DNA of 63,589 nucleotides, the filler included, from Parasitella parasitica NRRL 2501 (lineage: Eukaryota > Fungi > Mucoromycota), in NCBI GenBank assembly GCA_025201805.1. It is 11 parts of 11 records of this genome, joined end to end, with 100 filler letters (N's around TTAATTAATTAA, not from the genome) between each part and the next. Parts side by side here need not be neighbours in the genome. Positions count along the whole stretch, not along the records: positions 57,951 to 60,157 come from MU619574.1; positions 60,258 to 63,589 come from MU619402.1; 9 more parts are not named here. The stretch is one strand, 5' to 3'. How positions within the stretch are numbered: the first letter of the stretch is position 1; the number at the start of each line of letters is the position of its first letter. The notes beneath the pieces were generated by a model, which was not told where the DNA came from, did no database searches, and saw nothing but the letters and a program-made list of their open reading frames with translations. Positions 32,339-63,589 of this stretch are shown here, piece by piece. Made by a program: the position numbers and the translations under genes.

Positions 32339-32438
32339 NNNNNNNNNNNNNNNNNNNNNNNNNNNNNNNNNNNNNNNNNNNNTTAATTAATTAANNNNNN
32401 NNNNNNNNNNNNNNNNNNNNNNNNNNNNNNNNNNNNNN

Positions 32439-34335
32439 GCTGAGAGAACAGGACTACTAGCAAGTAAATTCTGAATGTTGGTCATGGCAAGAGTATGCTC
32501 TCTTGTCCATACCTTTTGAATATCAGGAGCATTTTTTATTGCATCTAGAGGAGCAGTTAAAGTGGAAAGACATGGTAGATGACCGCGAAAGTAGTTGATT
32601 AGACCTAGGCGAGATTGCAACTCTTTGCTGTTGGCTACGATAGGGTTCCAGTCCAACACGTTACTGACTTTACGTGGATCAAGGGTAAGTCCTTTTTCAC
32701 AAAGACAAAACCCTAAAATATTGATGCTTCTCTGAGCAAAATGCGTTTTGGCGTGATTGATTTTGAGATTGGCTTTGGTAAGACGATCAATTACAAGTTT
32801 AACGTATTTTAAATGCGTTTCCATGTTAGATTCTGTGTGGATCGTGATGCCGTCGATAAAATTGGTAGTTACTTCTTGGAGATCAGAGAATAAATTGGTA
32901 ACATGGCGCTGCACAAAAGAAGAGATGGGCAACAATCCCATGGGACAATTCCTGAAACTCCATTGCAAACCTGTCGTAGGATCTACAAACGAAACATATT
33001 TTCTTGACGAGCTCGATATGCGAAAACTATGGAAACATTGCGATAGATCGACCACAGTGAAAATGGAGTGTTTTGACATCTTTCTGTGTAAAGAAGCGAT
33101 CAATGGTAGTGGAAATCAATCAGACTTATCAGGGTCGAGAGCAGAATTGACTAAACGACAGTCTACAACTACTCTGTAAACACCTGGAGCATATTCCCCT
33201 GCGCTGGTTTTCTTCCTGACGCAAAATATGGGTGAATTGTACGGCGTACCTGGTGGAGCGGGTTCAATAACACCATTCTTAATCCAAGTAGCCATATGCT
33301 CTTTAATCGTAGGCATAAATTTTTCTTCAAGAGGCCATTGAGGTCTATACATTTTGTGCTCATGATATTTGAGAACATGCAATGTTAAAGTACTGCCTGG
33401 AATATTACAGTATGCTTTCGGATCGATTTTCTTATTTGCTTCTATGTAAGGTTCTATTTCTTTCAAGAAATATTCTCTTTCAGCTGCAGTGCCATATGGA
33501 GAATCATTTGGTTTGTAAGGATTAGGTTCAATTTGTGGAATCTCTGGGTTGTTATTGTCCTCCCAATCCATTGCCATATGAGAAATAGTTATCCCTATTT
33601 TCATTATTAAATCCATTCCTATTACCACATCAATGTCGCTAAAAATATCAAATATTTCAAATTTGGAAGAACACTGACGAGAGTTATAAATTATTTTAAT
33701 AGGATGTTCTGTAGTGCCAATTCTATCAACCACATTATCTTTTTTGCAAGTTTTGATAAAGCCATTTATTTGTTTGTTTATTTTTACATCTAAAAGTTTG
33801 GCTAACTTGGGCGAGATACAACTAAAAGATGATCCAGTATCTAGCATAAAGTAGGTACGGACCTTAACATTGTCATTTTCTAGAGTAATGGGTAAAATGA
33901 TAGAATTTTTGCTTAGTATATTGCTTGGTGGTTCATTCAAATATTGATACTCACAATCTTCTTTGATATGCATGGCAGCAAATGTAAGGTTTTGATCCTC
34001 AGGTGAGGATTCAGTGTCAGTATCCATGTTATCATCGGGATTCTGATCCTCGTGAGGGATCGGAACAATGGTTTTGCGACTGAAAGAACCTTTTTTCTTA
34101 TTGCCAGCAATTTTTTTGCACACCAAGTTGTGCTCAGGAGACCAGTTTGGTTCCTTGCAATATTTGCAAGATCTCTTGGCACCATTCAATCTTGTGTTTG
34201 CTGTGAGCCTACGTCGTTTCTTGTCATCACCAAGGAAACATTCATCGGTCGTATGGTTGGTCAATTTTGGGTGGTAGATACACCTTTTGTGGGTGCTCTT
34301 GTTGCCATTACCGTGACGAGCGATCTTGTATTGCA
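32439..34335 (-). mobile_element. Ty3/Gypsy LTR retrotransposon gag-protease-RT (inactivated)
   Basis: Zinc knuckle CKYC..H..C, protease LDTGS, YNSPIFCVRKK..YRVVVDCRLVN, DLSQCFHS, MPMG-like motif; in-frame TGA at 33116-33118 and FIDG in place of the F/YxDD catalytic motif. Confidence 0.92.
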
Positions 34336-34589: not shown

Positions 34590-34850
34590 TAATGATGTAT
34601 CAATTCTAAAACCGGATGTCAATATAATATAAACTCATACTGAAGAGTAAAACATCAGATCATAAAATAATATGACATGACATTTGGGATAGATACAATC
34701 TACCCTATCTCCCGGATCTCATCACTAAAACCTTTATCCTCACATCGCTTCCCTCAGTTCATGGAAAGTATATAAACCCTCTATTTTTGAATGTAATAAA
34801 CGGATCTTTACCTGATTAATTTCTACTTGAACTTTTCTGATAAATCAAGC
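34590..34850 (+). mobile_element. LTR-like sequence abutting a 5'-truncated Tc1 transposase
   Basis: Similar to 24962-25273; ends ..TCAAGCA; contains TATATAAA and AATAAA. Confidence 0.55.
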
Positions 34851-35817
34851 ATGTCTTAAATTACTCAAATCATTGGGATTTCAGGCAGCCAAAAAGAAGA
34901 AAAAGCCTATGCTGAAGCCTAATCATAGAAAACAAAGACTTGAATGGGCCAAAGCTCATCGCAGCTGGACAAAAGATGACTGGAGAAGGATGATTTTCTC
35001 TGATGAAACCAAAATCAACATCTGGGGCCCTGATGGTATCAAGTACTGCTGGAAAAGACCAGATGACAAACTGCAATTTCACCACTTAGATCTTACAGTC
35101 AAGCACGGTGGTGGTAGCCTCATGATGTGGGGTTGTATAACATACGATGGTCCTGGATACGCTTGTCAAATCTTCGATGGCACCATGAAAAAGGAAGACT
35201 ATATACATATACTGGAAACAGCCATGATGGATACTTTAGATTGGTATGATTATGACCCAGAAAAAATCTATTTTCAGCAAGACAAAGACCCTAAACACAC
35301 TGCAAAGGTTACTAAACAGTGGTTTGTGGATAATAACTTTAATGTTGATTGGACTTATAGCTGGCCACCCCAGAGCCCGGACCTAAACCCTATTGAACAC
35401 GTCTGGCACCATCTAAAATTAAAATTGAGCTCATATCCCACCAAGGCTAGAGGAGTACATGAATTGTGGGAGAGAGTAGAAGAACAATGGGCTACGTTTA
35501 CCAAAGAAGATTGTCAACGATATATTGATAGCATGCCTGCACGAATTGAGGCAGTAATCAAAGCTAAAGGTGGTCATACTAACTACTAAAGTGATTTTAT
35601 AAGCACCCTGAAAAATGGTCCGGATGCACACATGAATTTTAACCCCATATTATTTCAACCTCAGTTGACCAACTAAAATAAAACTTTTTTCATTTTATTA
35701 AATTTCACTTGCTCTCTTTAATGACGTTGGTTTCATGTTGATCGGATAACTTGTTCATAATCTACATCTGGTTTTAGCGAATTTTGCAAAACATCCGGAC
35801 CATTAATCCACCTACTG
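34851..35817 (+). mobile_element. Tc1-like DNA transposon (DD37E), 5'-truncated, with right terminus ..CCTACTG|TA
   Basis: IFSDETKIN, VKHGGGSLMMWGC, QQDKDPKH, WPPQSPDLNPIEHVW, IKAKGGHTNY*; end is the reverse complement of CAGT plus a TA target site at 35818-35819. Confidence 0.92.
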
Positions 35818-47258: not shown

Positions 47259-47939
47259 ATTGTTAATATTATTTGAATTGGAGAAGTAAAGATAATAAAT
47301 TTATCGGGCAGGTATCTTTTAAATATGGAGCGCCGTGTAATACAAATGATATCATGTTGCCTTTTATAAAAGGGTTTATGATGTCATGGTAGATCTCTGT
47401 TTTATATTTTAGACACGAGCAACAAGACCAGGTATACTAAATGACGTATAGAAGCCTTTATCGAAATAATGTAGGAGTTTGTAGAAGTATTCAATGAGTT
47501 ACTGACTTAGTCCGACCATAAATATCTATCCTAGTATTCACAAGGATGTTCCATCACTGATAATTTTCAAAAAAAAAAAAAAAAAAAAATTGAACCTGCC
47601 AATACCTGGACGACGCCAAACTTGACATATACTTCATGCGCCCAATGTAACAATTACGTTTATAATGTTAAATCTCTCACTAATAGCTGTATATCAGAAA
47701 GAACAACCTTGATTGGACATGTCTAACATCAAACTCTGATATAAAAGTAAATTCGCTCGATTTATTGGTTACTGACCCCAAAATACGAGCCACAGCAACA
47801 ACCATGTTAGCCGCGATTTCTGCTAAAAGCCTATTTAAATGTAGCCTTTAGACTTCCACAGCGCTCATCTATTAAAAATAGAAATATATAAAGTGGGGAG
47901 ATGGCATTGAGCGTGTGAGCAAAAGAACAGTTACAGGAC

Positions 47940-48275
47940 ACTGTTAGCTTTCTAAAAACCACAAAGGATGAAATGGATCAGTATCCAAACATGAAAGGTC
48001 ACTACCTCGTGATGGGTAATGCCCCTATCCATACACCAGAAGACATAACTGAATACGTAGAACCTCGCGGCTACGGCTGTGTTTGCTTGCCTCCATATTC
48101 TCCTAAGCTCAATCCAATTGAACAATTCTGGTCAGTGGTCAAAAGCAAAATGAAACGCAGCAAGTTTCTCGAGAAGGAAATATTGATGGCTTGGATCACT
48201 GAAACTTCTAATAGCTTGAAACCAAGTAATTTTAAAGAGATTGTTAGGCATCTCATAGAAGCATGGAAGAGGGGC
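47940..48275 (+). pseudogene. Tc1/IS630-like transposase fragment
   Basis: YLVMGNAPIH (catalytic D lost)..GYGCVCLPPYSPKLNPIEQFWSVVK. Confidence 0.85.
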
Positions 48276-49149
48276 CTTACTGTCCTTACCGGTATGTCAA
48301 AATCAGTCAGTAAAACGAATCTGCCAAAGAGTTACACTTTTATTAGAAATACATCTTCTGGATAACGTGTATATGCACCAGCATTATGTGCTAACGTCAT
48401 AATGCACAATCGTAACTAAGGTTCACTATGTAGAGCATGCAGTGCAAATCCTTGTTTTACCAATGCACATTGGCTTTTGCCCCTTGATCTGGATATAAAC
48501 CCTATATAGCATGTTATTGATATATAACACTTACGGTTCTGTCCTAACCCAGAAGTTTATGTGGCATCAATTCCAGTGATTCTCTTGTAAAATTTGCCCA
48601 TCTTATTTTCGTCTTTGTGGTCATGGAAGCAGCTGTTTCAGGCATGTCAATTGAAAGCATCAGAGGAAATTCTTTTTTTTTTTTCTTATAATTCAGATAT
48701 AGACAATCTACTTACTCAAACTCTGCCATCAGAGTACATACCTGCAGGCGACAGACTTAGTTGTATGATCTTGAATCAAAAAGTCATTGATTTAATTTCC
48801 CATGATCCCAGTTGTTCGTACATGACAGCCGATGAGGACTGAAATGACACGAACTTACTGTCATTTTTGCTGCTTCTGAAAAAAAAGTTCAAGTAAATGA
48901 TAAAGGTCATGGTGATTGTGATAATATATATGAGGGTTTCTGATAACAAACCTTCTATTTCTGATAAAAGCTCAGAAGTTTCTTAGAGAAGAGAAATGTC
49001 TGCCTAAAAAGATTCTAAAGTAAGGATTTCCATCTTTAGAGTAAAAGAGTAATTGCTTTGTTTTACTCATGATGAAAATACAAAGAGAATGTGTTGTGAG
49101 TTAAGCTATCTACAACATATATTCAAGTTTAAGGCAATTTTTAAAAAAG

Positions 49150-57950: not shown

Positions 57951-58050
57951 GAAATATGCATAGGTGGAAAAATTGAAATATGCAGAAATGGAAATATAGA
58001 AAACTGTGAAAATGCAATGCTGGAAAAATTGAAATATTGCAGGAAATTAA
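57951..58050 (+). repeat. Short degenerate tandem repeats (TGGAAAAATTGAAATATGCAG-like)
   Basis: GAAATAT(G)CA/GAAAATGCA recurs about five times. Confidence 0.55.
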
Positions 58051-58280
58051 TTAAGGGTAAGCATCCAGTAACTGGCATAATCGTCGAATGCTTAATTTTT
58101 ATAATATGTTATATGATGATTAAATAACTGCCAGTATTAAAATTTTGGCCCCTGCGTATAATAAAACGTATATTAAAATGCACCACAAAATGAGGACACA
58201 CGCTCCAACTTTGAGCCTATGTTTTGCTATATAATGGAGCCATTATTCTGTTTGTAGTGCTCTATGTTCAATTATATATC

Positions 58281-58547
58281 ATGAGAAAAGGACCATACGC
58301 CAAATATAGTAAGGATACCATTAAATTTCTTTTTGAAGGGTATTTTCTTAGGAGAATGACCGTTCGGGAGGCCTGCCAGCGATGTGAAATGAATGTGGCT
58401 ACTGGATATACGTATATCAGAAAGTTACGAAATAGCTTCATGGATTCTCATATGTGTGATGGTGCTAATCGTCCGGAGGATTTGCTACTCGAGGACCTGT
58501 TTGCTCGATTTGAAGGCCTTCGAATTCGACATAATAGGCGTATTTGA
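58281..58547 (+). CDS. Small HTH-type ORF resembling a Tc1/IS630 N-terminal DNA-binding domain
   Basis: KGPYAKYS..MTVREACQRCEMNVATGYTYIRK parallels YRNYK..SVKEAAAITGIKLKTAYGL in the neighbouring transposase. Confidence 0.5.
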   Translation: MRKGPYAKYSKDTIKFLFEGYFLRRMTVREACQRCEMNVATGYTYIRKLRNSFMDSHMCDGANRPEDLLLEDLFARFEGLRIRHNRRI

Positions 58548-58773
58548 CTCATACAGTGTAAGTATCGTAAGCATACTCAGCTCCTGTTCTGACTAAAAAT
58601 ATAGTTCATACACGCGTGATTATCCCCTTCAAATAAATGATATGTATCCTTTCTTCAAGACGGCAATGTTGCATGCAGTATACTTTATAAGTTTTGCAAA
58701 CTAGGTTTATATAAAATAAAATAAAAAAGCTTTTTTTTTGAATGTTTGAATCAATTCTTCAATATAATAAAAT

Positions 58774-60157
58774 ATGGCTCAAAATACGTCCACACCTATG
58801 CTATTAGATTTTCAATCAACAGACATTGAATATGATTATTCTTACGAAGATTTGGATGAAATTATGAATGAAAGTGACAAAGAAATGGATGGCACTTTCA
58901 GCAGCCCATTTGTCAGCCTGCTGAATGCAGTGTCCAGAAGTAGCCCAGAGCAAGGAGAAGTAACCATGGGAATCGATTCGGAGGCACACGATATTTTGAT
59001 GAATGATGATGAGGAAGAACCTGTTTCTGCCAAGCCTGAATTAGCAGACAAATATTACAGGAATTATAAAGTAGGCCAAAAGATAGACTTTATAAGATTA
59101 ATATTGGACATGAAATCAGTCAAGGAAGCCGCTGCAATCACAGGAATAAAGCTGAAGACCGCGTATGGCCTGAGGGATTACTGGAACACGTATGGGGAGA
59201 TTCCTAAACCTATGAAAAGAGGCCCCAAGCTATCCACAGATTTAAAAGAAGAACACGTAGAATTTATTGTAAACATCATTGATCAATGGGCATCAACTAC
59301 ATTGGATTCAATGAGGGAACAATTGATGAATAATTTCCCTGGATTGAAAGTATCTAAATCAGCATTTTATAGGTAGTGAAAATATTGCTTAAATAGCAAT
59401 TCATACATGTATTTATGTTTTTTTTTTTCTAGGTTCATCAAAAGTAAATGCGCTCTTAGCATGAAAAAGCTTGAGCTCCATTCAGAAAGAAGACGAGATT
59501 TAGTTTTACTCGAAGACAGGCGAAGAACTGTTCAAGGATGGGTGAACAATCCATCCATTGATTTCGAGAGCAACTGCGTTTTCATTGACGAGTCTGGTTT
59601 CAATATGCATATCACAAGGACAAGAGGATGGTCCAGCAAAGGAAAACGAGCCATTAACAAAGCACCCAAGGATCGCGGTGTCAATATTTCTATTCTTGGA
59701 GCCATCAGCCCGGAAGGTGTCATTGACATCTCAGTCAGGAAACCTGAATTTGTCAGTTGCAAGAAAAGAGATGCTAATGGGAAGCTTGTCTCCGAGAAGA
59801 AGCTTATCGGAACAAGAAGTCAGCATTTTCGGGCATACGTGGAGAGTCTTATGGACACTTTGGATAGCCTGGGGTTGGTAGGCCGTAATCTTGTTATGGA
59901 CAATGCCAGCATCCATAAAAATCCTGATACCATCGCTGAAATCGAACGAAGAGGTTACCGCCCTGTTTTTCTTCCACCATATTCTCCCTTTTTGAATCCT
60001 ATAGAAGAATTTTGGTCCAAAATCAAATACGGTGTGAAAAGGCATCCTTTTGACAAAAACTCTACTTTGACTCTGAGAATTTTGGAATCAACAAAGGCTG
60101 TTACAATATCCGATTGTAATGGTTGGATTAGACACTCTGTTTCCTTTTTCGACGACT
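58774..60157 (+). mobile_element. Tc1/IS630-type DD34E transposase, one intron (59373-59432), runs into gap
   Basis: HTH region; CVFIDESGFN, LVMDNASIHK, FLPPYSPFLNPIEEFWSK; 34 residues between second D and E; no stops. Confidence 0.93.
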
Positions 60158-60257
60158 NNNNNNNNNNNNNNNNNNNNNNNNNNNNNNNNNNNNNNNNNNN
60201 NTTAATTAATTAANNNNNNNNNNNNNNNNNNNNNNNNNNNNNNNNNNNNNNNNNNNN

Positions 60258-60827
60258 TACAACTCTGCTCACCTTGCAAAAAAGAAGAGACAATACGAGT
60301 TGCGGAAAAGAAAATTCATTGATAAATTATGCTCCGCTGAACGAAATCATTGCATCGTCGAAGAAGACAAAAGGCTCAAGCGCCTTGTTATGTTTGTAGG
60401 TGATCGCGGGCTTGGTATCGGTTCACGAACGAAAGGCTTTCTGCGTTATGGTGGTCACTGGAAGCCCAAAAAGAATAGCCTGTATTCTTCGATACTGTAC
60501 ACAAACGAGCATAATACATCCCAGACTTGCCCATACTGCTTTCGTAAGCTCTCTCACCCGTTACGTGTCGTACGAGACAACGACCAAACCCAAGTCAAGA
60601 CAGTCAAAGGTGCATTCATTTGTGTCAATAAAGACTGTATCTCTGTCAAGTCTGCCCACAACACTCACAACAGAGACATTCTCAGTGCTCTTGCGATCGG
60701 TTTGGCAGGTGTGGCCCAACTCGTCTTCGGCGTGACATTCCCATCCTTCGACCCAAAAACCAGTTTTTCAAGAACTGACAATTTCAACAAACTTGCAGAT
60801 GTCTTTCTGAACAAGAAAAGAATATAG
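60258..60827 (+). CDS. Fanzor (eukaryotic TnpB-like) RNA-guided nuclease, C-terminal half; open from contig edge
   Basis: VMFVGDRG.GIGSRTKG..RYGG, RuvC-II TNEHNTSQTCPYC, second Cys pair CVNKDC, RuvC-III HNRDILSALAI, tail FPSFDP. Confidence 0.85.
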   Translation, partial: YNSAHLAKKKRQYELRKRKFIDKLCSAERNHCIVEEDKRLKRLVMFVGDRGLGIGSRTKGFLRYGGHWKPKKNSLYSSILYTNEHNTSQTCPYCFRKLSHPLRVVRDNDQTQVKTVKGAFICVNKDCISVKSAHNTHNRDILSALAIGLAGVAQLVFGVTFPSFDPKTSFSRTDNFNKLADVFLNKKRI

Positions 60828-61204
60828 GCCTGCCCTCGATGAGGGCTATATTCGGTAAATTCAGAAACTCTATAAAGCTTATTACTATCAGAAACTCATC
60901 CTCTTTTTCTTCTATATAATTTTTTTACAACATAACCATCTCTTTTGTTGGTACGTATGCAATTACTCTTTGCGCTATTTTTTATTAACGGTCTTAACAT
61001 TGTGGCTTTCGTTTGGTCTCATAGTTCATTTACCCTATAAGTATTGAAAGAGTGTTTATGTCATACTTTAGTATTTATAACATCTAACAAATATGCTCCC
61101 TCCAGAATAGATTTAATTTGCTTAGGCGTGACAAGTGAGAAGTTTTTTCTTTTTATTATTATTTGCATTATTTCAGAACTCTGTTCATTTAGCAATAAAA
61201 GAAA

Positions 61205-61582
61205 ATGCATTCAACACAACTTAGAAAAGCCCTCAATGAAATGCATCCAACTACGCTCATTACGGAAATCCCAGAAGTTCAAAATACCATTGCGCATTTA
61301 TTAAAATCAAATCAGGAAATGCGCGAGTTCGACCCAGAAAGAAAAGATTTAGAATTTGTTCAAGCTATTAGAGAAAATGCAGAGCTGATTATTCGCAAAG
61401 AAAGGCAAGTTGATATAACACTACAAGTGATTCGAGAACGACTTGGCGAAGCTGCATGGAGAGAAATGGGGAGTAACGTGAAAGAGTTTAGAGAGGTGTA
61501 TGCACAAGAATTAGAAGCAGAACAAAAATTACAGTCCAATGAAGAAAAAAAACAAGAAGCAGAAGAGGGCGTATTTTTATAA
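61205..61582 (+). CDS. Conserved small coiled-coil protein, possibly Tma17/Adc17-like
   Basis: LRKALNEM..LITEI..VQNTIAHLLKSNQEM..QAIREN..and terminal EEGVFL resemble the Tma17/Adc17 pattern (from memory of the family). Confidence 0.55.
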   Translation: MHSTQLRKALNEMHPTTLITEIPEVQNTIAHLLKSNQEMREFDPERKDLEFVQAIRENAELIIRKERQVDITLQVIRERLGEAAWREMGSNVKEFREVYAQELEAEQKLQSNEEKKQEAEEGVFL

Positions 61583-62407
61583 TAAATACATATATCACTG
61601 CAAAAGTATTGGAGTATACATTGATATACATACTGTGCTAATTCGATGGAATAAAAGATACTCTCGATTGTCTAAATGAAAACATTTTATAATTAGAACA
61701 ATTGCAATCTTTATAATAACGTGTATCTAGCAAGAATGGGATCAACAGTTATAAATCCAGTTGAAAATAATCCATGCGTCATTAAATGGATCCTAGAATT
61801 ATTTTAAAGAATATAAGATAAGATAAAACACAGACTAAATAGAAAATAACTTTTTAATTTGAGTAACCTGGACATGTAGGAAATCAATGATGCTTCAAGT
61901 TAGTGTTTAAAGAGGCTAAAAATAATAGAAGGGGTTACAGAGAGGGAAAGAGGGAGAGAGGGGTGATCACAGCTGTTAGACCCGATCCGCATGTATAATA
62001 TTTCGTACACTTTTTGCTAATTGGAGGGTTCCAGATTTTTTCTAGACATCTCATGTATACATGAATCCTGATCAAGGTTTTCTCTTTTTACATGTATCTA
62101 TAGCTTCTCCTCAATAAAATTACATAGTCATTTGTTTAATCAATCTGCTTTCCTTTTTCCTTTTTTTTTATCAAAAAGAGAGCCAGAATGCCTCTCTTTT
62201 CTTGCAAATATCAAACCCAGTTTAGTATGCCAATTTACAAATGTGTAACAAATACAAAAATAGATGATTACATTGAACGATCAATATAATGAGGACCATT
62301 TAGCTTGTGTCTCTTAGTTTATTTATCCCCGCCTTATTAGTTAGTTCGTTCGAGTAAGGAGAAGGCCATTCACACTTTTTTTTCCTTTTTTTTTCTTTAT
62401 CATCAAA

Positions 62408-63589
62408 ATGAAGTTGATATCAAACTTGGCTACCTTGTCTATAGCGGCAAGTTTATTGCTTCAAAGTGGCAATTTTGTAGCTGCTACACCGTTTTTCAAT
62501 ATACCAACAGTTGCTAATCACAATAATGATGCATCGCTCGACTCCAGCTGCAAAGACTTTAAAATCACTTATCCATCTTCCAGTGGTAGTTGTTTTCCAT
62601 GATGGTAACAGAACAGCATAGTGACAACTTTTTTTTTTATCATAGGCCTTTCATTTGAAGAAGGAAGTAAGCATTTTGTTGCATGGCAAGCACCAAACGG
62701 TATAAAGCAAGTCAACATCACGATGATTGATAATGCATCTTTGAATAATCAAGTTCATATTGGCACCTTGGGTAAGTTCTTATATTACGACTATGTATAT
62801 TTTAATAAACATTTCTTGAATAGATACTGATCGTCTTGTTACTAACGAGTTCCCCTTTAAACTCCCAAGCCAAACTGATGGCGATTTCCATTTTCATATT
62901 TCTGGTCAAGGCGATAGCCAGTTTTGTGTAGCAGATTCCGTAGCTTTTCATATTAAAAAACGCCAGCAAGACACAGCAGCAACGCCTGCAACTAAATCTG
63001 AAGAAGCAACTTCTACAGACGCATCAGCGACTTCTACTACCAGCACACTAAACAAAGAAGATATCGACAGAATCCTTCAAGAAATTCAAAACAGTGGCAA
63101 TGGCCAGACAGCTTCCGACACACATGCAAACGACATTTCTGACGGTAGAGCCGAAAAAACTAACAACAATGCAGCAGCTGCATCTGATAACCACAAAAAA
63201 CAAGGTTTCTACGCCTATATCGAAAGTTTAGATCAAGATCATAAAAAATTCATCCACAAGAACAAAGAAACAGAAACAGAGGCTGTCACTCACAAGAATG
63301 ATCTTGCATCAGATGACAACAACGGCAGCAATTCCTGGTTCACTAATGAAGATAAATCAACTCACAACAATGCTGCTGAAAAGACGTGGCACTCTGATGA
63401 TACCAATCCTTATTTCACTAATGATGACCAATCTACCCATCGCAATGATGGAGCTTCTACTAAGTCTTGGCATTCTAACGATGCTGATGCTCACTCTTAT
63501 TTTACAAATGAAGATCAATCTAGCAATGCAATCAACCATCACCAAAATGCCAATGAGTGGGTTTCTGCACAAGATACTCAGATTAACAA
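62408..63589 (+). CDS. Secreted protein: signal peptide, small beta-rich domain, then His/Asn/Asp repeats; truncated by window end
   Basis: MKLISNLATLSIAASLLL signal; CKDFKITYPS|..VAWQAP..|..FHFHISG..CVADSVAFHIKKR; two GT-AG introns; third exon open to 63589. Confidence 0.75.

Follow-up and report, generated by a model that had tools for sequence, protein, structure and literature searches.

When a Fanzor gene stands directly downstream of a Tc1-like transposase gene, on the same strand, do the two belong to one transposon? The question is raised by the right-hand part of a 63,589-nt stretch of DNA from the fungus Parasitella parasitica NRRL 2501 (the window, by which we mean the whole stretch at its full length). 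Here a spliced transposase gene of the DD34E type is followed, across a block of 100 nt, by an open reading frame (ORF) at 60258-60827 with the features of the C-terminal end of a TnpB/Fanzor protein. A first-pass annotation had read the two genes as a single recent autonomous Tc1-Fanzor element whose middle had collapsed in an assembly gap. Our analysis argues for a different answer. The two scaffolds, which come from a fragmented assembly, are joined only by an artificial spacer, and it is probable that each of them ends in a different multi-copy transposon, the one with the 3' end of a long-type Fanzor1 gene and the other with a nearly complete Tc1 DD34E gene.

The block between the transposase and the Fanzor ORF

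Positions 60158-60257 consist of 44 N, the 12-mer TTAATTAATTAA and again 44 N, 100 nt altogether. The identical block occurs ten times in the window, where it separates pieces of 1.2-22 kb. The 12-mer is its own reverse complement and carries a stop codon in all six frames. Two further N runs of the window (172 and 135 nt) are ordinary scaffold gaps. Because of its ten identical copies and the palindromic 12-mer with stops in every frame, 60158-60257 is a concatenation linker between separate scaffolds and no assembly gap within one locus, so the 'one spacer gap' supposed to part transposase and Fanzor falls away. Order, distance and relative strand of the Tc1 and Fanzor scaffolds are therefore uninformative, and the adjacency and shared strand of the two genes are artefacts of joining. 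Since they lie on different scaffolds with the artificial spacer as the sole join, the transposase and the Fanzor fragment are likely separate repeats. The same caution applies wherever such 100-nt blocks (N...TTAATTAATTAA...N) occur: they are scaffold joins, and synteny across them is meaningless.

The sequences on either side were then compared for signs of a common element. No inverted repeat pairing 57951-58774 with 61000-61049 was found. When both strands are searched, the window has one occurrence each of the final 19 nt of the Fanzor repeat and of the candidate Tc1 terminus TA|CAGTG (58552). The two genes were not seen to be contiguous within one inverted-repeat pair, as would be expected of a composite element; only the spacer links them. 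Contig depth, taken from the public runs X1, X2, X3 and X5 (Logan contigs), is a rough guide and gives no copy number; in X2, the sole run covering both, the Tc1 contig stands at 3.7x and the Fanzor contig at 6.4x single-copy depth. About 900 residues are absent from the Fanzor fragment, whereas the transposase lacks only 7. The ORF has the motifs of a long Fanzor1 clade and not the short-clade (686-928 aa) motifs of the Mariner-borne Fanzor1s. The Mariner-borne proteins of Mucorales are ROr-1 (928 aa), ROr-2 (690 aa) and MCi-1 (686 aa), with C-termini reading ...GDWSAPN...NEYKTSSHCP...WNRD (Bao & Jurka 2013, PMC3627910). With an artificial linker, some 900 missing residues, a long-clade protein and no inverted-repeat pair, the idea of one recent element with a collapsed middle did not hold.

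Catalytic and zinc-binding motifs of the ORF

The frame at 60258-60827 has no stop over 189 codons, from the base directly past the spacer up to the TAG at 60825-60827. It encodes a long basic helix, the FVGDRG strand, RuvC-II, a zinc ribbon and RuvC-III, and all motifs quoted in the first-pass annotation were found in it (YNSAHLAKKKRQYELRKRKFIDKLCSAER, VGDRG, TNEHNTSQTCPYC, CVNKDC and NRDILSA). The RuvC-II Glu is E84 within TNEHNTSQTC, which fits the Glu-then-[TS][TS]xxC motif of Bao & Jurka 2013. The zinc ribbon (TNB) is of the C4 type, with C91/C94/C122/C127, and the RuvC-III residues R139 and D140 lie in NRDILSA, 12 residues past C127 (an RD is sought 5-50 residues after the ribbon). The pattern [TS][TS]xxCxxC...CxnC...RD has this single occurrence in six frames of the whole window. 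Among the aligned relatives with a residue at the position concerned, all 40 of 40 have the catalytic Glu, while 37 of 40 have the Asp and 35-38 each Cys.

The RuvC-I Asp, expected 125-275 residues upstream, precedes the scaffold start and is outside the window. In relatives the RuvC-I motif reads SGTDSG (P0001) or GTDNG (P0003 and P0004), the latter being found about 200 residues upstream of the point at which the window protein starts. What is present amounts to the final 17% of a protein about 1,100 aa long. Because it is without the RuvC-I, REC and WED domains, the fragment would be unable to act alone.

The extreme C-terminus deserves a separate description. Relatives end in P-[AI]-[IV]-D-D-[GS]-N-T-[FL]-stop; in the window an analogue, RPALDEGYIR-stop, lies in another frame (60811-60858). 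The ORF itself ends ...LNKKRI, 10 codons before the stop of this peptide, and the closest relative, P0008, likewise ends early (...FLNKKSA). A hairpin, GAATATAGGCC...GGCTATATTC, at 60820-60853 occupies the same DNA as the stretch encoding RPALDEGYIR.

Profile and fold evidence for Fanzor1 membership

The profile and structure searches proposed in the first-pass annotation came out in favor of its family assignment. When a profile of 38 relatives was compared with the PDB, the top match was SpuFz1 (8gkh) at E 8.6e-5, the next match being at E 0.048. In this alignment TnEhntSqtC stands over LDEYKTSSVC and gRDslsa over NRDMLST, so that the Glu and the RD are paired. A predicted model (AlphaFold) of the relative P0001, RuvC-I motif included, has a pLDDT of 81.3, and Foldseek placed Fanzor1 structures at its ranks 1-6 and 8, with a best E of 8.4e-6, and after them Cas12f and TnpB. 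For the 189 residues that the window itself encodes, the model (pLDDT 85.8) had PpFz and SpuFz as its top five fold matches, the best at E 4.4e-3, with no match at E <= 0.001. VIA-align, run with the same model, listed Fanzor or Cas12/TnpB-type chains at all ranks from 1 to 42. The structures of SpuFz1, GtFz1 and PpFz1 are deposited in the PDB, according to PMC11423790. The motifs FVGDRG, NEHNTSQTC and SALAIGLAG are also found in the Fanzor1 proteins MCi-10 and MCi-8 (Additional file 3 of Bao & Jurka 2013, PMC3627910). Taken together, the SpuFz1 profile match, the fold searches, the conserved catalytic residues and the motifs shared with MCi-8 and MCi-10 support the ORF as the C-terminal RuvC-II / zinc-ribbon / RuvC-III part of a Fanzor1/TnpB-type protein.

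Relatives of the ORF and the long Mucorales clade

By tblastn, the ORF aligns to residues 901-1079 of the 1,082-aa protein P0003 from Rhizopus arrhizus and to residues 928-1107 of the 1,114-aa protein P0004 from Mucor circinelloides. Its closest partial matches are from Parasitella parasitica. Other relatives turned up solely in Mucorales and in further contigs, with 45-54% identity to the nearest full or partial ones outside Parasitella. A profile of P0003 and P0004 found 1,163 representatives at E <= 0.001, many of which are fragments. A metagenome scan with a single protein turned up no relative, while the 5 loci found with a smaller alignment (1.1-2.3 kb each) do not reach far enough to reveal the upstream neighbours of the relatives; the metagenome contigs L001-L003 carry distant relatives at 45-49% protein identity. 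P0003 and P0004 have about 800 residues N-terminal of RuvC-I, with no Pfam family, which is about 300-500 more than in SpuFz1-type Fanzors.

Proteins of this length are known in the order. The long clade of Bao & Jurka 2013 (PMC3627910), comprising ROr-4, PBl-3 as well as MCi-2 to MCi-10, has 1,067-1,375 aa, and in the table of that paper some of its members are placed with MuDr-like ends that come with 9-bp duplications, others with a Harbinger gene or a partial Crypton, and others are unassigned. The window ORF carries the long-clade signature [FI][VI]GDRGxGxGSxxK...GGxWK, TNE[HY]N[TS]SQTC and RDxxSA[LM]AIGL, as compared with the MCi, ROr and PBl families of the paper's supplement by eye and by motif look-up rather than by a tree. 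Since MCi-10 and MCi-8 share the signature motifs, the family is already in print. To call the ORF a candidate new programmable nuclease was an overstatement: just 17% of the protein lies in the window, and publication of the family dates from 2013.

Copies and right end of the Fanzor-bearing repeat

Contigs over 60258-60900 stood at 7.3, 6.4, 6.7 and 7.4x the depth of the unique-flank contig in X1, X2, X3 and X5 respectively, and this depth of 6.4-7.4x persists to about 61033. A unique contig of 2521-2522 nt covers 61004-62000 at a depth of 26-121 in all four runs, and diverged copies of the repeat part from the window after 61044 and 61049. Because this unique contig begins at 61004 and the diverged copies differ past 61044 and 61049, the right end of the Fanzor repeat is at about 61043.

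Over 636-669 positions the main contigs show 3-4 differences from the window, with the frame intact, and three of the six variant sites are synonymous and three conservative. Some copies are broken: one type has a 95-nt deletion at 60455-60549 (X3, X5), and another diverges after 60356. The last ~120 nt of the repeat (60907-61024) were seen at 2.6-3.7x the ORF contig depth in all four runs (X2: 2,854 vs 772). There seem to be more ends of the element than copies with a gene, perhaps because non-autonomous derivatives or solo ends exist.

The right end reads ...CCCTATAAGTA and bears a terminal motif, TACCCTATAAGTA, that is found clade-wide. At a like distance past the stop, distant clade members have ATACCGTTACAGTA (L001 and L002) and TACCCTCTCAGTA (L003), and in Bao & Jurka's DNA record for MCi-10 TACCGTTACAGTA lies about 100 nt past the stop. 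A pattern search with TACC[GC]TNN[CA]AGTA gave 1 match in the window, against 0.06 expected by chance. In a MAFFT alignment of the four 3' tails, L001-L003 line up at the terminal motif and the window copy is misplaced.

The 3' tail has blocks conserved across the clade and, by analogy with known Fanzors, is the predicted place of an omega-RNA scaffold. RNA folding of 60800-61049 gave no excess folding energy (z 0.18), and an Rfam search of 57951-63589 gave two chance-level rows only, with no match for the 3' tail.

The clade tails also contain blocks resembling splice signals (window 60854-61043, L001 881-1151, L002 1284-1550, L003 534-790). GGTAAGT stands directly after the stop, with GGTAAAT in the window; a second block reads TTGGTA[TCA]GT (window 60949); branch-like CTRAC motifs are present, and a YAG lies about 20 nt before the terminal motif. 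The MCi-10 record has a single intron-like segment, which ends at the CAG of the terminal motif. These blocks could be introns of the 3' untranslated region or could take part in guide-RNA maturation.

The Tc1-like transposase and its scaffold

On the other scaffold, the two exons joined over a 60-nt GT..AG intron give a protein of 441 aa with no stop. The catalytic triad is D252, D356 and E391 in the spliced protein, with 34 residues between the last two (DD34E). Pfam DDE_3 was detected in exon 2 at E 2.3e-28 (99.3 bits vs a cut-off of 28.6), and HTH_23 in exon 1 at E 1.2e-4, its 22.2 bits being under the cut-off of 24.6. The uninterrupted spliced DD34E transposase of the first-pass annotation was thus confirmed. 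Exon 2 has 86% and 84% identity to P0173 and P0174, each of which extends 7 more residues; the window copy is without these last 7 residues because the scaffold ends at 60157. At 58552, some 220 nt before the transposase ATG, TA|CAGTG is a candidate left terminus of a form typical of Tc1. No inverted partner for it was found in the window; the element's right end falls outside the scaffold.

X2 was the only run with contigs over 58018-60157. In it the whole of 57988-60157 is in one contig, which continues just 13 nt past the end of the Tc1 scaffold, and this end sits at a branch of the assembly graph. Another contig, of 825 nt, shares 57988-58017 and then diverges in all four runs. The scaffold start (57953-58037) consists of short tandem-like repeats, AATATGCAGAAATGGAAATAT and variants, and has the highest contig depth of the scaffold. 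Positions 58215-58557 form an open reading frame 110 codons long, its Met at 58284, with weak likeness to HTH_28 (E 0.1), which stops 5 nt before TA|CAGTG (58552). The Tc1 copy may sit within another repeated unit.

Other features of the window

The coordinates are collected in Table 1. A Pfam scan of the genes in the host flank (61044-63589) matched no family. The small scaffolds nearby in the window contain further transposon pieces: a reverse transcriptase piece (RVT_1, E 7e-17) at 32438-33115 (-), a second Tc1-like transposase with DDE_3 and HTH_Tnp_Tc3_2 at 34831-35586 (+), and a Tc1-like DDE_3 relic at 47919-48362 (+). With identities of 22-32%, none of them closely resembles the 58774-60157 transposase. 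Their presence on small scaffolds fits the pattern of collapsed repeats in a short-read assembly.

Table 1. Features of the Tc1 and Fanzor scaffolds, in window coordinates.
Feature	Position	Strand	Basis or remark
Tc1 scaffold, 2,207 nt	57951-60157		Separate from the scaffold starting at 60258
Transposase exon 1, acidic N-terminus and helix-turn-helix	58774..59372	+	Splice; N-terminus matches P0174 (Parasitella parasitica)
Transposase intron, 60 nt, GT..AG	59373..59432	+	Alignment to intron-free relatives continues straight over the junction
Transposase exon 2, DDE_3 domain, DD34E	59433..60157	+	Cut by scaffold end
Artificial spacer	60158..60257	.	Ten identical copies; palindromic 12-mer, stops in every frame
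3' fragment of Fanzor1 gene, 189 codons and TAG, open at scaffold start	60258..60827	+	Frame, alignment, profile, fold
Non-coding 3' tail of Fanzor repeat up to right end, 216 nt	60828..61043	+	Contig depth and divergence points
Terminal motif TACCCTATAAGTA	61031..61043	+	Fits TACC[GC]TNN[CA]AGTA; 204-216 nt after stop
Single-copy host flank, two unrelated genes	61044..63589	.	One contig over 61004-62000, four runs
Coiled-coil-like ORF, 125 aa	61205-61579		Within host flank
Ser/Thr/Asn-rich gene	from 62408		Within host flank

Discussion

Several observations weigh against two separate transposons and a Fanzor1 fragment. Mariner elements with both a transposase and a Fanzor1 gene exist in Mucorales (ROr-1, ROr-2 and MCi-1), and by eye the window transposase shares NCVFIDE, RGY and LPPxSPxLNPIE with the transposases of ROr-1 and ROr-2. 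The Tc1 scaffold ends 7 codons short at a graph branch, and therefore another gene could follow; public contigs of X1 (525 nt) and X2 (1,127 nt) extend 462 and 458 nt upstream of 60258, and the non-adjacency of the two scaffolds is not proven. The depth comparison is only as good as the rough measure behind it. As to the ORF itself, its model was superimposed by VIA-align on SpuFz residues 465-633 (150 residues aligned, rmsd 5.2) with a Z of 7.6, in the range that the tool's own note calls 'middling'. The Pfam TNB model (Cas12f1-like, PF07282) scored E 0.0017 on the ORF, with 18.9 bits for a cut-off of 26.3, and single-sequence phmmer searches of the PDB, with the ORF and with the full-length relative P0004, gave no Fanzor/TnpB match.

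The first group of these points would be accounted for by a single autonomous Tc1/Mariner element, with a DD34E transposase and a downstream Fanzor on the same strand, of which the two scaffolds are the halves, with a middle of some 2.7 kb or more dropping out during assembly. Such composites are in print for Mucorales with TA duplications (ROr-1 of 5,190 bp, ROr-2 of 4,073 bp and MCi-1 of 4,036 bp; PMC3627910) and are reported more widely in PMC10530073. Both scaffolds end in repeats at graph branches, and they are neighbours in the file behind the window. However, neighbourhood and strand stem from the artificial linker alone, and the listed Mariner-borne Fanzors are short-clade proteins with other motifs, unlike this long-clade fragment. 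Between the left part of the Tc1 scaffold and the right end of the Fanzor repeat no inverted repeat was found; that end, with its motif also in MCi-10, L001, L002 and L003, is not the inverse of TA|CAGTG, and the depths in X2 are unequal. We therefore regard a single element as very improbable. The second group of points, together with an NCBIfam search of the ORF in which nothing matched, would suit an unrelated zinc-ribbon protein with TnpB/Fanzor motifs by chance. Such mimicry is hardly credible, given that the SpuFz1 profile match aligns both catalytic residues, that two independent models rank Fanzor1 first and Cas12 and TnpB chains after it, that Bao & Jurka (PMC3627910) assigned the family to Fanzor1, and that full-length relatives bear the RuvC-I-like GTDNG.

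Whether the Fanzor gene is still alive is a different matter. It might be a decayed relic, with no whole-protein copy in the genome and the open 189 codons as a recently dead remnant. The broken copies (the deletion seen in X3 and X5 breaks the frame), the many short gene models among database relatives, the conserved tail displaced into a different frame and the higher depth of the repeat's last ~120 nt, as though ends exceed genes, are all in line with this. Against it, the main contigs keep the frame with few differences, none of the variant sites is other than synonymous or conservative, and all catalytic and zinc-binding residues are kept. An early end is shared by P0008, the closest relative, which makes the short tail a family trait and not a lesion, and fragmentary gene models are expected from short contigs. 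A relic is thus a real possibility, though the less likely one.

If two separate transposons are present, as is likely, each can be given a putative mode of action. By analogy with characterized Fanzors, a complete copy of the Fanzor1 gene would encode a nuclease whose partner is an omega-RNA made from the 3' tail (~60.8-61.04 kb), with the 3' part of this RNA, the guide, extending into the flank past 61043. DNA that matches the guide would be cut by the RuvC site beside a transposon-adjacent motif (TAM), as is the case for SpuFz1, GtFz1 and PpFz1, and such RNA-guided cutting may help the element to persist or spread. The Tc1 element would be an ordinary cut-and-paste transposon, moved by its own transposase and owing nothing to the Fanzor. 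A bolder proposal is that of a several-copy, recently amplified long-lineage Fanzor1 that moves by a mechanism defined by its 3' end and whose guide RNA is matured via the spliceosome. It draws on the sharp 3' end of the carrier, with its clade-wide motif of 13 nt, and on the splice-signal-like blocks (GGTAAGT, the second GGTAYGT, CTRAC and YAG) of the tail. An inverted repeat was looked for around the Fanzor carrier and none was found. We hold this proposal to be very doubtful; if true, it would describe a Fanzor lineage with 3'-end-defined mobility and a spliceosome-matured guide RNA.

As it stands, the finding matters little: the clade, the activity and the composites are published, and one sixth of the protein is in the window. 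Fanzor1 genes of the long Mucorales clade were already catalogued in 2013, and Mariner-Fanzor composites are also in print. RNA-guided cleavage by Fanzor1 was shown in 2023-2024 (PMC10432273, PMC11423790). No RNA, TAM or cleavage data for the long Mucorales clade were found in the literature searched. Mucor and Rhizopus are unmentioned in the main texts of the 2023 Fanzor papers, and among the full texts searched the 2024 structure paper alone came up for Fanzors in connection with Mucorales or Parasitella. The long clade thus seems to be without experimental work in the literature searched.

Comparison with known systems

Among Tc1-like elements, the window transposase is nearest to P0173 and P0174 of Parasitella parasitica, with 84-86% identity over the catalytic exon, the same N-terminus and DDE_3. 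ROr-1, ROr-2 and MCi-1 are from the same fungal order and their transposases resemble the window's DD34E transposase by eye; they have 20-90-bp inverted repeats and TA duplications, whereas no such pair links the two scaffolds of the window.

SpuFz1, PpFz1 and GtFz1 have solved structures and demonstrated RNA-guided cleavage (PMC10432273, PMC11423790). The RuvC-II Glu, the zinc ribbon (TNB) and the RuvC-III RD of SpuFz1 and PpFz1 align with the window ORF by profile and by fold, at a structure-based identity of 13-22% and with no single-sequence match. From this alignment an omega-RNA from the 3' end of the element is expected. In comparison with them, the relatives of the window protein are about 300-500 aa longer N-terminally. 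With a complete, active copy, the eukaryotic RNA-guided nucleases would gain a Fanzor1 of large format.

MCi-8 and MCi-10 (PMC3627910) have the same C-terminal signature as the window ORF, whose relatives reach a full length of about 1,100 aa. They differ in that both are listed as single copy without termini, whereas the window Fanzor is a repeat of several copies, and in that MCi-10 has its terminal motif TACCGTTACAGTA about 100 nt past the stop, compared with 204-216 nt for TACCCTATAAGTA in the window. The terminus mapped here at ~61043, with its clade-wide motif, shows where the guide RNA of the long clade should end.

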